A stretch of 11,861 nucleotides of DNA from a virus (IMGVR_UViG_2585427739_000006); one strand, 5' to 3'; positions 3,113 through 11,861 are shown, numbered from the stretch's first letter. Numbers and translations: made by a program. Notes: a model not told the origin generated them from the sequence alone.

Positions 3113-3297
3113 TGTGCACATCCTTTTGGCATCAGACGTAAACGAGCCAGCATTGAAACAATGCATATTTTATTTAATAGCTCCCGTTCTTGTTTTCTCT
3201 TGTTAATGGCATCTTCAGTAAATACAGGGTTACTGATAGTGACACCAATTTCAAAACAACCTTCAGACGTATTAACGTTTGGTAATAACGTTTTCAT
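3109..3297 (-). CDS. dicB: DicB cell-division inhibitor (62 aa)
   Basis: ATG at 3297 with GAGGA 7 nt upstream; translation MKTLLPNVNTSEGCFEIGVTISNPVFTEDAINKRKQERELLNKICIVSMLARLRLMPKGCAQ matches E. coli K-12 DicB as I recall it. The longer 97-aa ORF-track version has no ribosome-binding site. Confidence 0.75.
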   Translation of the reverse strand: MKTLLPNVNTSEGCFEIGVTISNPVFTEDAINKRKQERELLNKICIVSMLARLRLMPKGCAQ

Positions 3298-3466
3298 TAT
3301 CGCGTCCTCAACAATGAATTTTGTGATGCAGTGCCTGGTGCCTCCAGGTGACGTTAACCAGTTAACAATTAACGCCGGATACAGAGAATCCACCCATAAC
3401 ACTGTTTTTGGTTTTAACTGTTCCGCGTGCGCTTAGCCGCATTCACCGCATCACAAAATTCACTTT

Positions 3467-3524
3467 AAAAACGGCGGCAGAGCAGTCACGGAGTAAAACT
3501 GATACCGCCAAACGTCACCAGAAA
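3467..3524 (-). ncRNA. dicF: DicF small RNA (ftsZ-targeting sRNA of the dicB operon), 53 nt plus 3' U-run
   Basis: Minus-strand sequence TTTCTGGTGACGTTTGGCGGTATCAGTTTTACTCCGTGACTGCTCTGCCGCCG followed by TTTTT. This agrees at 52 of 53 positions with the K-12 DicF sequence as I remember it, and it lies immediately upstream of dicB as in Qin. Confidence 0.75.
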
Positions 3525-3643
3525 ATTGATAACAGAGGGCGTTGCAGCGGGGTTGTCACTTAAGCGTATGGTCAACCTGACAACTCGGTGTCCTCAACGG
3601 GGAAGAAATACCCCCGCCATACTTACCGCCGCGCCATTTCGCG

Positions 3644-6634: not shown

Positions 6635-7096
6635 ATGACCCCAATAAAAATATTTATGACTATTGCTGATTTCAAACGGCCTAAATTGGAGCTCCCAAAC
6701 GGGGCAAACAAACTACTACTGCACTCTTGCTGTGCTCCATGTTCCGGTGAAGTGATGGAGGCGCTTCAGGCCTCGGGAATCGACTATACCATCTTTTTCT
6801 ACAACCCGAACATTCATCCTCAGAAAGAGTATTTAATTCGTAAGGATGAGAATATTCGCTTTGCTGAACAACACGGCGTGCCATTTATTGATGCTGATTA
6901 CGACACAGACAACTGGTTTGAACGTGCCAAAGGAATGGAATGGGAACCCGAGAGGGGGATCCGTTGTACCATGTGTTTTGACATGCGTTTTGAGCGGACA
7001 GCGCTGTACGCTGCTGAAAATGGTTTCAGTGTGATCAGCAGTTCACTGGGCATTTCACGCTGGAAAAATATGCAGCAGGTTACCGTCACTGGATAA
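6635..7096 (+). CDS. QueH/DUF208-like protein (153 aa), possibly C-terminally truncated
   Basis: Contains [20 protein letters not shown] and [11 protein letters not shown], which match the signature motifs I associate with the DUF208/QueH family. It is shorter than typical QueH and ends at a TAA that is in frame with the next gene. No ribosome-binding site at either candidate ATG (6635, 6656). Confidence 0.5.
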
Positions 7097-8238: not shown

Positions 8239-8616
8239 ATGCGTGATATTCAGATGGTTCTTGAGCGTTGGGGGGCATGGGCGGCTAATAATCATGAAGA
8301 TGTGACCTGGTCGTCCATTGCCGCCGGTTTTAAGGGATTAATTCCTTCAAAAGTAAGATCTCGTCCGCAATGCTGTGACGATGACGCGATGATCATTTGT
8401 GAATGTATGGCTCGCCTGAAAAAAAACAACAGCGATTTACATGATTTATTGGTGGACTATTATGTCGGCGGCATGACTTTTATGGCGCTTGCACGTAAGC
8501 ATGGGCGATCTGATTGTTGGGTTGGCAGGATGCTCCAGAAAGCTGAGGGCGTAGTGGAGGGCATGCTGATGGTGTTGGATCTCCGATTGGAGATGGATGC
8601 TGATTGTTCGAAATAA
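8239..8616 (+). CDS. Late-gene antiterminator Q, short phage-82/DLP12 QuuD type (125 aa)
   Basis: ATG at 8239 with GGAG 7 nt upstream. The protein [24 protein letters not shown]... resembles the short Q family as I recall it, and it is followed by a short leader and intrinsic terminator as expected for a pR'-tR' unit. Confidence 0.75.
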
Positions 8617-8628
8617 TTAAAGGAAAAG

Positions 8629-8657
8629 TTGCTGTCTGATTTTCATTAGTCTAACAT
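8629..8657 (+). promoter_or_regulatory. Candidate late promoter (pR'-like)
   Basis: TTGCTG (8629..8634), 17-bp spacer, TAACAT (8652..8657). An imperfect palindrome AACATTTTAAATGTT (8653..8667) overlaps the -10/start region. Weak hexamers; speculative. Confidence 0.2.
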
Positions 8658-8715
8658 TTTAAATGTTGGAATCGCAACGTAGTTATTATCATATAACAGC
8701 TTGTTTCCTGATTTA

Positions 8716-8743
8716 GCCAGCCTCCCCAAAGGCTGGTTTTTTT
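8716..8743 (+). terminator. Rho-independent terminator (tR'-like), the expected target of Q antitermination
   Basis: Stem CCAGCCT (8717..8723) pairs with AGGCTGG (8730..8736) around loop CCCCAA, followed by seven T (8737..8743). An A-tract precedes it on the other strand, so it may also act weakly on the convergent blc transcript. Confidence 0.8.
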
Positions 8744-8771
8744 CTAATAAGTATCATTTCGGGTGGGGATT

Positions 8772-9296
8772 TTATTGTTTAACCCATAATAGTTCATTGA
8801 CATTGAATCCCAACTTTTGAGCGGTACGCACATAGTCTGCTTTTACATTATCTGGAATAGTTTGGGTCCTTGCCAGAATCCATAGGTATTCTCTGTTCGG
8901 ACCACTGACAAGAGCATACTTATACTCATCATCCAGTTTGATTACATTATAGCCACCATAGAAGGGGCCAAAAAACGAAACTTTCAACGCTGCAGTTTTA
9001 GTATCTCCAGTAAAGTATGCTTTACCTTCGCTCTCGCTCCATTTGTTTTTCGTTGGATCGTATCCACGGTTAAGTACGCGAATCCCTCCGTCGTTCCGTT
9101 TTTCATAAGTAGCGCTGACCTGTTCCAGACCACGTTCGAACCAGTTCTCGAGGCGAGCTATTTCATACCATTTTCCGAGGTAGCGGTTGGCGTCAAAATT
9201 TGTAATCGGCTGCACACCTTTAGGTGGTGTCGGGGCCTTACATGCTATAAGAGTGAAAGAGAGTGCAATGCCAGTCAACACAGGCCATAACTTCAT
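8772..9296 (-). CDS. blc: Bacterial lipocalin Blc-family outer-membrane lipoprotein (174 aa), diverged from E. coli chromosomal Blc
   Basis: Signal peptide with lipobox LIAC (Cys19). Conserved lipocalin segments NFDANRYLGKWYEIAR, GKAYFTG, ALKVSFFGPFYGGYNVI and YLWILART. AGGA 8 nt upstream of the ATG at 9296. Confidence 0.88.
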   Translation of the reverse strand: MKLWPVLTGIALSFTLIACKAPTPPKGVQPITNFDANRYLGKWYEIARLENWFERGLEQVSATYEKRNDGGIRVLNRGYDPTKNKWSESEGKAYFTGDTKTAALKVSFFGPFYGGYNVIKLDDEYKYALVSGPNREYLWILARTQTIPDNVKADYVRTAQKLGFNVNELLWVKQ

Positions 9297-9356
9297 AATA
9301 AATCCTGTACTTTTGATAGTTGAGAGGTAAGCGTCAACGGAGCACCGTATTGACGC

Positions 9357-10970
9357 TTATTTATTAGTGAGTACTACGTTCCATGGCAGGAGTTCGTCAA
9401 CTCGGTTGGAAGGCCATTCCGGCAGTACGCTCAGGATATGGCGCAGATACGCTTCCGGATCGATACCATTCAACCGGCAGGTGCCGATCAGCCCGTACAA
9501 CAGTGCACCACGCTCGCCGCCGTGATCGCTACCGAAGAACACGTAATTTTTCTTTCCGAGACAGACTGCACGAAGCGCTCTTTCCGCTGTGTTATTGTCC
9601 GCCTCCGCCAGACCGTCATCACAGAAGTTGCACAACGCAACCCAGTGCTTCCTGATATACCGGAACGCATCTCTCAGACGGCATTTTTTCGATAACGTGT
9701 GTTCTTTCTCCTGCATCAGCTTATACAGGGAAGTCAGTAGCGGTTTACTCTGCATTTGCCTGACCGCCAGGCGTTCAGACACCGGCAACCCGCGTATTTC
9801 GTGCTCAATGGCGTACAGTTCGCCGATTAGTTTCAGTGCTTCTTCCGCCGTCGCGCTTTTGGTACTGATATATACATCGTGGATTTTGCGCCGCGCATGA
9901 GCCCAGCATCCTGCTTCCGTCAACGCGCCGCCTTCACGTTCGGCACTGAACAGCCGATCGTAACCTGCGAACGCATCTGCCTGCAGGATACCCCGGAAGG
10001 GACGAAGGTGTTGCTCCGGATGTTTACCCTGATGGTCCGGTGAGTAGGCGAACCAGACCGCCGGAGGTTCTGGCGAACCGGCATTTCGGTCATCCCGGAC
10101 ATACGTCCAGATATATCCTGTTTTCGCCTTCTTCCTGCCCGGTGCCAGTACTTTTACTGGTGTGTCATCAGTGTGAACCTTGCGGGTGTTCATCACATAA
10201 CTGTACAGGGCATCATTCAGCGGCGTCATTAACTGGCAGCACGCATCAACCCAGTTGGAGAGTAAGGCACGGCTCAGTTCGACACCCTGGCGGGCAAAGA
10301 TTTCACTCTGACGATACAGTGGCAGGTGTTCGCAGTATTTTCCCGTTAACACGCGGGCAAGTAACCCCGGGCCCGCGATACCACGCTCTATCGGACGGGA
10401 TGGTGCCGGTGCTTCAACGATGCAGTCACATTTTGTACAGGCTTTTTTTACCCGTTCTGTGCGGATCACTTTCAGGGCGCTGCTCACCAGTTCCAGTTGT
10501 TCTGCGCTGACTTCCCCCAGATAATCCAGCTCACCGCCACACTCCGGGCAACAGCTTTCTTCAGGCTCCAGGCGGTATATTTCACGGGGGAGATGTGCCG
10601 GTAACGGACGACGATGGCGCGACTGTCGCAACTGGCGGGGAACCAGCGGGTCATCCTCACGCCCACTGTAACGATCGCTTTCCTGCTCGCGTTGTTTCAG
10701 CAGGGCTTCAGCCTGTTCAACCTCACGACGCAGTTTTTCAGAACGGGTTCCGAACAGCATCCGGCGCAGTTTTTCTATCTGAGCCCGCAGATGCTCTATT
10801 TCCCGTTCATCTTCTTCGATCTTTTCTTCGGCACGTGCCAGTGCAGAGCGCAGGAAGGCCTCCGTCTCTTCAACCAGACTCAGTTGCTGGTCTTTCTGAC
10901 GGAGGGCTTCAGCCTGCTCAGAGAGCAGCCTTTCCAGCTCAGCGATGCGAATGAGGTATTTCTGACTCAT
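9357..10970 (-). CDS. IS66-family transposase TnpC (537 aa)
   Basis: Long ORF with a coiled-coil/leucine-zipper-like N-terminus, a CxxC...CxxC zinc-finger region (CCPECGG...CTKCDC) and an acidic catalytic core, as in IS66 TnpC. Confidence 0.9.
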   Translation of the reverse strand: MSQKYLIRIAELERLLSEQAEALRQKDQQLSLVEETEAFLRSALARAEEKIEEDEREIEHLRAQIEKLRRMLFGTRSEKLRREVEQAEALLKQREQESDRYSGREDDPLVPRQLRQSRHRRPLPAHLPREIYRLEPEESCCPECGGELDYLGEVSAEQLELVSSALKVIRTERVKKACTKCDCIVEAPAPSRPIERGIAGPGLLARVLTGKYCEHLPLYRQSEIFARQGVELSRALLSNWVDACCQLMTPLNDALYSYVMNTRKVHTDDTPVKVLAPGRKKAKTGYIWTYVRDDRNAGSPEPPAVWFAYSPDHQGKHPEQHLRPFRGILQADAFAGYDRLFSAEREGGALTEAGCWAHARRKIHDVYISTKSATAEEALKLIGELYAIEHEIRGLPVSERLAVRQMQSKPLLTSLYKLMQEKEHTLSKKCRLRDAFRYIRKHWVALCNFCDDGLAEADNNTAERALRAVCLGKKNYVFFGSDHGGERGALLYGLIGTCRLNGIDPEAYLRHILSVLPEWPSNRVDELLPWNVVLTNK

Positions 10971-11000
10971 GGCCGTTTTTATAATGCGGTCAGGAGTTTT

Positions 11001-11351
11001 TTACAACATTGTCAGTGCGTTAAGGCGGGATGTTTTTGGCTGACGCCAGTCCAGCTTATCGAGGAGCATTGCCAGTTGCGAGCGGGTAATGGATATCTTA
11101 CCGTCACGCACCGCAGGCCAGATAAACTGACCTTCCTCAAGGCGTTTGGTGAACAGGCACAGACCATCAGCATCAGCCCACAGGATTTTAATCGTGTCTC
11201 CCCGTCGGCCACGGAAGATAAACAGGTGACCGGAGAAGGGGTTATCATCCAGCACATGCTGTATCTGCTCCCCCAGACCGTTGAAGGATTTACGCATATC
11301 AGTAACGCCGGCAACGAGCCAGATACGGGTACCTGATGGGAGTGAAATCAT
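11001..11351 (-). CDS. IS66-family accessory protein TnpB (Orf2, 116 aa)
   Basis: 116-aa ORF whose ATG (11351) overlaps the tnpA stop as ATGA. The sequence MISLPSGTRIWLVAGVTDMRKSFNGL... is typical of IS66 Orf2. Confidence 0.88.
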   Translation of the reverse strand: MISLPSGTRIWLVAGVTDMRKSFNGLGEQIQHVLDDNPFSGHLFIFRGRRGDTIKILWADADGLCLFTKRLEEGQFIWPAVRDGKISITRSQLAMLLDKLDWRQPKTSRLNALTML

Positions 11352-11785
11352 CGTCCCCTCCCGGTCAGCTCACGGATCAACACCGTGAGCAGCTCTGGTG
11401 AAGGATTTTCCAGCATCATTTTACCGTAATGGAATTCCACATGGCAGGAAGCTGCACAAGCACCTGATAATGCCTCCGGAGCAGGAGCATCTGTAGCACA
11501 GCGCGGGGTGTCGATAAGTTCCACTGGAACCAGAGTCGGAGAGGCCGGAAAAGATTGTGATACTGTAGGGCCTACAATAGTTGGAGGCATTCTACGAGAA
11601 ATACGTCCTTCTCTTTGCCAGAGGCGTAGCCATTTAAAAATCAGGTTGTTATCAACGCCATGTTCCCGGGCCAGTTGTGCAACATTGGCATTTGGTTTCG
11701 AAGCCAGTTCAACCATATGAAGTTTAAATTCATTAGAAAATATCCGGCGGGTTCCGGAGCGCCAGTCTGTAGGTTTATCCATCAA
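11348..11785 (-). CDS. IS66-family TnpA (Orf1, 145 aa), helix-turn-helix protein
   Basis: First ORF of the IS66 operon, starting 76 bp from the window edge; N-terminal helix-turn-helix-like region. Confidence 0.85.
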   Translation of the reverse strand: MMDKPTDWRSGTRRIFSNEFKLHMVELASKPNANVAQLAREHGVDNNLIFKWLRLWQREGRISRRMPPTIVGPTVSQSFPASPTLVPVELIDTPRCATDAPAPEALSGACAASCHVEFHYGKMMLENPSPELLTVLIRELTGRGR

Positions 11786-11861
11786 TAGAACTCCGTCTAA
11801 TTTAGAAGGAGCTCTAATTTAGTCTGCAAGGAGCAGGTGTTACAGACGGCATTGGCTTTAC

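Follow-up and report, generated by a model that had tools for sequence, protein, structure and literature searches.

Is a phage late-control switch that is followed by a convergent gene and an insertion sequence, where the lysis genes would be expected, a switch that has lost its late region? The question is raised by positions 8617-8771 of an 11,861-nucleotide stretch of viral DNA (IMGVR_UViG_2585427739_000006; here, the window), which the original prediction had read as a compact Q/late-promoter/terminator cassette with its late genes displaced or deleted. Our analysis bears out the cassette, with a PF06530 Q gene, a terminator homologous to a phage tR', and a promoter candidate between them. 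It speaks against the displacement or deletion: blc is native cargo, most relatives keep the same gene order through the holin, and the window ends inside ISEc43. We put the probability at roughly 70% that the unit is an ordinary Q-dependent late control cassette of the Q21/Q933W family, carried by a common Escherichia coli lambda-like prophage. The features discussed below are as follows.

8239..8616, plus strand: Q antiterminator gene, 125 amino acids (PF06530, PHROG 79, matches to Q21 structures)
8588..8617, plus strand: alternative promoter candidate, overlapping Q at its 3' end (TGGAGA-18-AATAAT; predicted start near 8624)
8629..8657, plus strand: favoured pR' candidate (TTGCTG at 8629-8634, 17-bp spacer, TAACAT at 8652-8657; start predicted at about 8663-8665)
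8635..8672, plus strand: predicted region of Q-binding and sigma-dependent pause elements (repeats, palindrome, -10-like hexamers)
8664..8743, plus strand: predicted terminated late-promoter transcript (about 80 nt; about 120 nt from the alternative promoter)
Start at about 8699, plus strand: third promoter candidate (TTGGAA, 15-bp spacer, TATCAT)
8715..8743, plus strand: tR' intrinsic terminator (stem 8715-8723/8730-8738, loop CCCCAA, T-run 8737-8743)
8772..9296, minus strand: blc-type lipocalin lipoprotein gene (Lipocalin_2, NCBIfam Blc subfamily, PHROG 2809)
9327..11861, minus strand: ISEc43, IS66 family (Pfam hits, ISEc43 copies elsewhere, left inverted repeat GTAAGCG at 9327)

The Q open reading frame runs from an ATG at 8239 to a stop codon at 8614-8616, encodes an intact protein, and is preceded by a GGAG ribosome-binding site 8 nt upstream of its start; ydfU lies before it, so that, with the lysis genes that follow in relatives, the gene takes the last place of the early rightward operon, and exo and a DicF RNA are also present in the window. 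The protein matches the whole length of Pfam PF06530 (Phage_antitermQ; positions 1-118 of 118) with 171.6 bits (cut-off, 26 bits) and PHROG 79 (“anti-termination protein Q-like”) with an E value of 2.8e-50, and its residues 8-90 match the solved Q21 structures 6P18 and 6JNX (E = 5e-9). PF06530 is the Q21/Q933W family (Q21 structure preprint), and by these profile and structure matches the window Q is a member of it. Identity with Q21 is 32% (BLASTP, residues 8-90); the C-terminal DNA-binding half cannot be aligned to that of Q21 and is 37 residues shorter. Among closer relatives, the protein is 98% identical to Q of phage IdasGreatGrand, and in an alignment that also included the Q proteins of 933W, 2G7b, and PhiR40 it is about 86% identical to Q of 2G7b and 79% identical to Q933W (first 120 residues in both cases), the difference from the latter lying only in a short C-terminal tail.

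An intrinsic terminator with a 7-bp GC-rich stem and seven U residues had been placed within about 100 bp of Q, and it is found there. A perfect 7-bp GC-rich inverted repeat (8717-8723/8730-8736), which extends to 9 pairs over 8715-8738, begins 99 to 101 bp past the Q stop and is directly followed by seven T residues at 8737-8743, the end of the T-run lying 127 nt from the stop. The folding energy of the hairpin is -14.2 kcal/mol (z = -3.6), a value that none of the shuffles reaches. Because its minus strand lacks a T-run, the hairpin is unidirectional. The 3' 50 nt of the unit resemble the StxS/tR' region of Shiga toxin (Stx) phages (78% over 54 aligned columns; E = 1e-4), and the stem GCCAGCC...GGCTGG is common to both (positions 3686-3714 of L005); similarity to the Stx leader upstream of 8694 has no statistical support. 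On this alignment, the terminator and about 25 nt before it are homologous to the Stx-phage tR', where Term-seq places the 3' end of the late-promoter transcript StxS (PMC7547250). The 155-nt interval 8617-8771 is present in 1113 of 5426 complete E. coli genomes, and no annotated feature lies under it among the matches listed (30 RefSeq records). Kept in that many genomes and homologous to a mapped terminator, the hairpin exceeds what chance would produce.

The short distance between Q and terminator is the norm of the family, since phage 21, whose Q also belongs to PF06530, has the same layout. In the curated record of phage 21, the Q stop is followed after 6 nt by a -35 element (TTGACA), a 17-bp spacer, a -10 element (AACACT), and the start; a pause element (TAAGCTG) lies at +2, and the terminator ends at +50, about 91 bp past the Q stop. 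Both cassettes measure about 90 to 130 bp overall, and both have a weak -10 with A at position 2 and T at position 6. The differences lie in the details: the favoured -35 of the window begins 13 nt past the Q stop, and that of phage 21 begins 7 nt past it; the terminated RNA is predicted at about 80 nt instead of about 50 nt; and the Q-binding elements ATTGAGCA and AATGAGCA fill the 17-bp promoter spacer of phage 21, whereas no TGAGCA repeat exists in the unit studied here. In phage 21, a pair of tRNA genes separates the terminator from the holin, while the window lineage has about 3 kb of cargo there, the first gene of which is convergent. The Q protein of lambda belongs to an unrelated family; the terminated RNA of lambda is 194 nt long, and its lysis genes lie directly behind.

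Stx phages (933W, Sakai Sp5/Sp15) share with the window lineage the homologous terminator segment and the presence of cargo between terminator and lysis genes. They differ in having a 144-amino-acid Q and a 258-nt leader, the 5' half of which carries the mapped late promoter and a first terminator-like hairpin and is absent from the window. Because the mapped Stx start, 258 nt upstream of tR', sits in a segment that overlaps the 933W-specific Q tail and is missing here, terminator homology does not place the promoter of the window unit. The 258-nt Stx late leader may be a fusion of two late-promoter/terminator modules, of which the second corresponds to the window-type unit.

The weak promoter candidate that had been noted after Q is present as a sequence candidate, TTGCTG-17-TAACAT. 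It ranks first in the window, with 8.2 bits, when -35 and -10 elements are scored in a position-weight scan; the other two candidates score 6.8 bits (start at about 8699) and 6.1 bits (TGGAGA/AATAAT, which was first found by a consensus scan). The scan ranked the known pR' starts of phage 21 and of an Stx1 phage first in both controls and is therefore valid as a rough guide. However, a site of 8 bits or more turns up about every 540 nt on this strand (about 22 per 11.9 kb), so the score is weak evidence, and the promoter candidate by itself is no more than chance. The allele of the related phage 1H12, whose intergenic unit is 90.7% identical to that of the window (98.3% in IdasGreatGrand), ranks the candidates differently: the favoured pair falls to 5.7 bits, the candidate at about 8699 drops out of the top list, and TGGAGA/AATAAT becomes the top site with 7.4 bits. 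Variation among 21 haplotypes is too sparse to choose among the candidates, one of the 21 having CAACAT at the proposed -10.

The arrangement of 1H12 narrows the search from the other side. By the logic of the family, a deposited phage with a Q of this type should have a late promoter and then a terminator ahead of its holin. Apart from tR', 1H12 has just one strong plus-strand terminator in that interval, about 60 nt past the AraC-like gene, and a promoter would not fit in front of it. For the same reason, a late promoter located just 5' of the holin, which would need space for a pause element as well, was rejected; we read this second terminator as the end of the cargo genes. Judged from these sequence features, it is very probable that the late promoter starts somewhere in 8600-8712, and the odds that it is specifically the TTGCTG/TAACAT pair are close to even.

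Candidates for the Q-binding site are less clear. The original prediction had pointed to an imperfect palindrome as a possible Q-utilisation site. The palindrome indeed exists (8650-8659/8661-8670; 10-nt arms, 90% complementary), but its role as a Q site is doubtful and it was rejected as such: only 7 of 10 positions are complementary in the 1H12 allele (read by eye from the 1H12 sequence), and the known binding element of the Q21 family is a direct repeat, not a palindrome. Short repeats of TCTGAT and TCATTA occur within 8635-8672, and the promoter spacer motif TCTGAT-TT-TCATTA resembles TCTGCA-TA-TCATGA of 933W at 11 of 14 positions, a match that is about what chance gives by estimate over the offsets compared. 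TCTG-N4-TCAT was rejected as evidence of a Q-binding element on account of this chance-level match, a distance to the -10 that differs from 933W, and its absence in the related locus L197. No Q-binding direct repeat was established between the -35 and -10 of the window allele. Direct repeats of WATGT with a period of 8 to 9 bp occur in 4 of 13 contexts downstream of Q in the clade (null mean, 0.23). Because this pattern was chosen post hoc and is missing from the window allele, where the inverted arrangement makes up the palindrome, it serves as a lead only.

Pause elements give a similar picture. The -10-like hexamer AATGTT (8662-8667) overlaps the presumed start, and TGGAAT (8667-8672; +4) has a G at the critical second position, where the 1H12 allele reads TAGAAT; no clean pause element was found at +1 to +10 of the favoured start. 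The window and 1H12 alleles differ by 10 substitutions over 8617-8743, and 7 of the 10 fall in 8639-8668, a clustering that fits either a rapidly evolving recognition sequence or relaxed constraint.

Taken as an ordinary late switch, the unit would work as follows. A sigma-70 late promoter right after Q, most likely TTGCTG-17-TAACAT with a start near 8664, would be transcribed as far as tR' when Q is absent, giving an RNA of about 80 nt. Q, as a Q21/Q933W-family antiterminator, would convert the polymerase to a terminator-resistant form, and transcription would then read past tR', antisense over blc and via the ybgA-like and AraC-like genes, to holin, endolysin, and Rz. ISEc43 has inserted between blc and the ybgA-like gene, and no late genes are seen because the window ends within it.

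The terminated RNA itself invites a further reading, namely, that it is a paralogue of StxS with a different set of targets. It would lie in the same position as StxS and share a homologous 3' end and terminator with it; its terminator ends in seven U residues, as is typical of Hfq-binding small RNAs; and between the window and 1H12 the RNA body (8669-8743) varies far less than the promoter-proximal 30 nt. Moreover, terminated late-promoter RNAs have been proposed as a general source of small RNAs (PMC7547250). The predicted RNA folds at -23.3 kcal/mol (z = -4.1). The duplex that it forms with the rpoS leader (target sequence confirmed in 5412 genomes) reaches only -13.3 kcal/mol, the level of shuffled sequences (mean, -13.1), compared with -24.9 and -23.8 kcal/mol for StxS of the Stx1 and Stx2 phages and -26.4 kcal/mol for the DsrA control. 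By these modelled energies, the StxS seed pairing with the rpoS activating region is not conserved. The predicted 5' hairpin gains no support, because both 1H12 substitutions in its outer stem break pairs and neither is compensated. An Rfam search gave no family above threshold for this RNA (the sub-threshold hit over the terminator, Betaproteobacteria_toxic_sRNA, has 28.6 bits against a gathering score of 50); StxS itself has no Rfam family match. StxS is made as a 258-nt precursor that RNase E processes to a 74-nt form, and a precursor of this type does not fit here, given the 127 nt between the Q stop and the end of the T-run and the absence of the 5' half of the Stx leader. A regulatory role for the RNA of about 80 nt is thus possible but unsupported. 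A StxS paralogue with other targets appears doubtful, and the full form of the idea, that of a constitutive Hfq-dependent small RNA of this kind carried by nontoxigenic prophages in about one-fifth of E. coli, is unlikely.

The convergent blc gene and the IS66 element reported downstream are both there, blc at 8772-9296 and three IS66-family open reading frames (tnpA, tnpB, and DDE transposase) at 9357-11785, all on the minus strand. The blc product scores 310 bits against the NCBIfam Blc subfamily (cut-off, 267). In 1H12 and IdasGreatGrand, the order is Q, terminator, blc (minus strand), ybgA-like gene, AraC-like gene, holin, endolysin, and Rz, and in IdasGreatGrand the lysis genes are succeeded by a terminase gene. 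A prophage of strain 127 that adjoins ynfC-rspAB, a neighbourhood that we take to be the Qin attachment region, is a close match to the window, and by this comparison the window prophage has a Qin-type site as well. Past Q, where it has no ISEc43, the strain 127 prophage carries the terminator, blc (minus strand), a YbgA-family gene, an AraC-type helix-turn-helix gene, holin (essQ), ydfR, lysozyme, and Rz. By coordinate subtraction in strain 127, 1H12, and IdasGreatGrand, the holin starts about 3.0 to 3.1 kb past the Q stop in intact relatives. The order Q, terminator, blc, ybgA-like gene, AraC-like gene, and holin is complete in 53 of the 60 IMG/VR loci whose Q shares 98% identity or more and whose downstream flank is long enough, and 7 lack a holin; the full order through the holin is also found in all 10 NCBI contigs retrieved by the exact Blc protein. 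Because the same layout recurs in deposited phage genomes and most relatives, the convergent blc is native and no intruder. On this conserved gene order, blc and the ybgA-like and AraC-like genes, which fall in separate PHROG families, are a native cargo (moron) island between tR' and the holin.

Other members of the clade carry cargo at the same place. In phage 2G7b, Q is followed by a convergent porin gene and the holin, an arrangement that is presumably that of DLP12 quuD, nmpC, and essD; one RefSeq “quuD” label supports the likeness. As in the window, a convergent outer-membrane cargo gene lies right after Q, and an opposite-strand gene at this position is thus a recurring design. The cargo gene encodes a porin in 2G7b and a lipocalin in the window, and the sequence after Q is unrelated, with another set of hairpins and no StxS-like terminator. 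In Stx phages, the cargo consists of tRNA genes and stx. The comparison with phage 21 and DLP12 that had been proposed at the outset was therefore apt, in view of the compact layout shared with the former and the close Q relative in 2G7b.

What interrupts the window is ISEc43. Its products match DDE_Tnp_IS66, TnpB_IS66, and HTH_Tnp_1, and the segment from 9325/9327 to 11861 is 99.9 to 100% identical to independent copies annotated as ISEc43. It entered at 9326/9327, in the spacer that separates blc from the ybgA-like gene, and lies 30 bp upstream of where blc starts; strain 127 has the target intact, as ...GATAGTTGAGAG/TAAGTATG... (the right side also given as TAAGTATGAAAG...). The far terminus of the element is expected to read ...GGCTTTACGCTTAC; the window stops 6 nt before it, and nothing past the element is visible. 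The missing late genes are therefore an effect of the window edge. The left junction is clean and the site otherwise intact, and the insertion is strain specific. No insertion of this type exists at the 10 NCBI places with the exact Blc protein, and none of the complete E. coli genomes has the window arrangement, the sole full-coverage match carrying its insertion sequence between the terminator and blc.

The loss reading proposes that the late region was removed or rearranged by a deletion or inversion mediated by the insertion sequence, with the switch left orphaned in a cryptic prophage under decay. Degradation is common among prophages at this site (that of strain 127 contains two copies of IS2, and its terminase and tail genes are pseudogenes), some relatives have IS1 inside Q or an insertion sequence inside the unit, and the 7 IMG/VR loci without a holin fit the same pattern, as does the fact that the exact blc/ISEc43 junction was found neither in genome_contigs nor in the complete E. 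coli genomes. However, there is no positive sign of a deletion in the window, the ybgA-like gene, AraC-like gene, and holin are retained in the large majority of relatives counted above, and an independent insertion of the element is a simple one: in strain 600029, a separate ISEc43 copy of 2541 bp, located 28 nt downstream of the terminator and ending in ...CTTTACGCTTAC (...GCTTAC), is flanked by an 8-bp target duplication (GGATTTTA), with the downstream genes intact. Loss of the late region is thus unlikely, and an intact switch with its late genes beyond ISEc43 is preferred.

Least likely, and improbable on the evidence, is that the hairpin merely ends the early (Q) operon or is shared with blc, with no active late promoter in 8617-8715 and the true one elsewhere or dead: the weak and poorly conserved promoter candidates, the lack of a convincing pause element or Q-binding repeat, PhiR40-type relatives (Q 92 to 93% identical) with a plus-strand terminator about 45 nt past Q and no room for a promoter, and an HK629 record that places the terminator first and a putative late promoter after it all lean this way, but the homologous Stx hairpin, which has no convergent blc behind it, is a mapped late-promoter transcript end, the minus-strand hairpin has no T-run, phage 21, the best-studied member, shares the compact layout, and 1H12 and IdasGreatGrand have no other plus-strand intergenic promoter-terminator pair before the holin, except about 60 nt past the AraC-like gene, where the terminator is too near any promoter candidate.

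By itself, the unit matters little, being a textbook lambda-like late switch of a very common prophage lineage. Its more general lessons are that a convergent gene right after Q does not mean loss of the late region, and that cargo islands of 1 to 3 kb between tR' and the holin, bearing blc, a porin gene (2G7b type), or stx, are the rule in this clade of Q. Insertion sequences repeatedly hit the stretch between Q and blc, and this is the route by which such switches become disconnected in cryptic prophages. A late promoter/terminator unit present in about one-fifth of the complete E. coli genomes is also unannotated among the matches listed. Mildly new are the partial homology to StxS, with no rpoS seed, and an Stx late leader that appears to be composite. 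With a StxS-like 3' end and no rpoS seed, the unit provides a cheap test of whether terminated late-promoter RNAs evolve into small RNAs; if its transcript were a StxS paralogue, the StxS class would extend well past Shiga toxin phages.

In addition to Q and the late-promoter/terminator unit that follows it, the window carries the following:

3472-3523, minus strand: DicF antisense RNA (match of 72.5 bits, above the gathering score of 48)
3265-3474, minus strand: an STnc100-like match adjoining DicF and below threshold (34.5 against a gathering score of 47)
6635-7096, plus strand: a truncated ORF of 153 aa for QueH (epoxyqueuosine reductase), covering profile positions 1-126 of 175

DicF goes with the dicB operon of Qin-type prophages, and its presence agrees with the Qin-type context of the window. 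The queH equivalent in E. coli strain 127, which has a closely matching prophage, carries a pseudogene annotation, whereas the version in locus L221 is 221 aa long. Relatives have hokD and rem between queH and ydfU; the window has neither gene.

IS elements have inserted repeatedly in the stretch running from Q to blc. A separate ISEc43 is present in E. coli strain 600029 (L002, 14175-16715) at the equivalent of about position 8771 of the window and in the same orientation. It lies 28 nt 3' of the terminator T-run, between 8-bp target repeats (GGATTTTA), and in that prophage Q itself is interrupted by an IS1. Thus, two independent ISEc43 insertions (window and strain 600029) fall within about 560 bp. 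In a further relative (L043 / L152, IMG/VR), foreign DNA is joined within the unit itself, at the equivalent of 8674/8675, directly after ...GTTGGAAT; the foreign part starts with GAGCCTGTACATAG..., runs on into an ORF, and could be an IS.

The window and the related allele of the deposited 1H12 phage genome (L003) differ at 10 positions across 8617-8743, 7 of which cluster in 8639-8668 (L003 5240-5269). Through this cluster, TGGAAT of the window becomes TAGAAT in 1H12; the inverted repeat AACATTT/AAATGTT of the window is a direct repeat, AATGTT...AATGTT, in the 1H12 allele. The Q proteins of the two types differ by only about six residues. WATGT direct repeats with a period of 8 to 9 bp, a pattern picked post hoc, follow Q at a distance of up to 200 nt in 4 of the 13 contexts compared (1H12, L154, L127, and yecE); the number expected from shuffled sequences is 0.23. 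The contexts comprised 12 from the Q clade plus phage 21 (the window, L003, L005, L007, L008, L009, L091, L127, L129, L151, L154, L167, and L197). These repeats recall the (A/T)ATGAGCA repeats of phage 21.

Three hairpins are found about 20 to 190 nt after Q, ahead of the convergent porin gene, in the 2G7b-type loci (L008, L151, and L167). Judged by eye, all three seem to show compensatory base changes among the three variants. The hairpins could be part of a plus-strand late leader or of the 3' UTR of the minus-strand porin gene. A conserved ATAACAG motif lies 5' of them; the window has it too (8693-8699), as does StxS, the short RNA of the Stx-phage late leader whose 3' end lies at tR'.

Within that leader, the Stx1 phage (L005) reads TGTATT at 3618-3623 and differs there from the Stx2a phage (L006). 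This difference agrees with the remark in PMC7547250 that a primary start at this position was called upstream of stx2AB only, and it suggests that Stx2a phages have a genuine promoter inside the leader. The 258-nt Stx late leader (3457-3714 in L005 and L006) looks composite. Its 5' part, common to the yecE-integrating Stx2a phage (L009), the Q of which shares only about 50% identity with that of the window, contains two elements:

Late promoter: TAAGAGTGGTTAC(A/T)TTGCCAC
3481-3500: terminator-like hairpin, followed by seven T

The 3' 50 nt of the leader, with tR', also occur in the window unit. Therefore, StxS may be derived from a second late-promoter/terminator module that was formerly free-standing.
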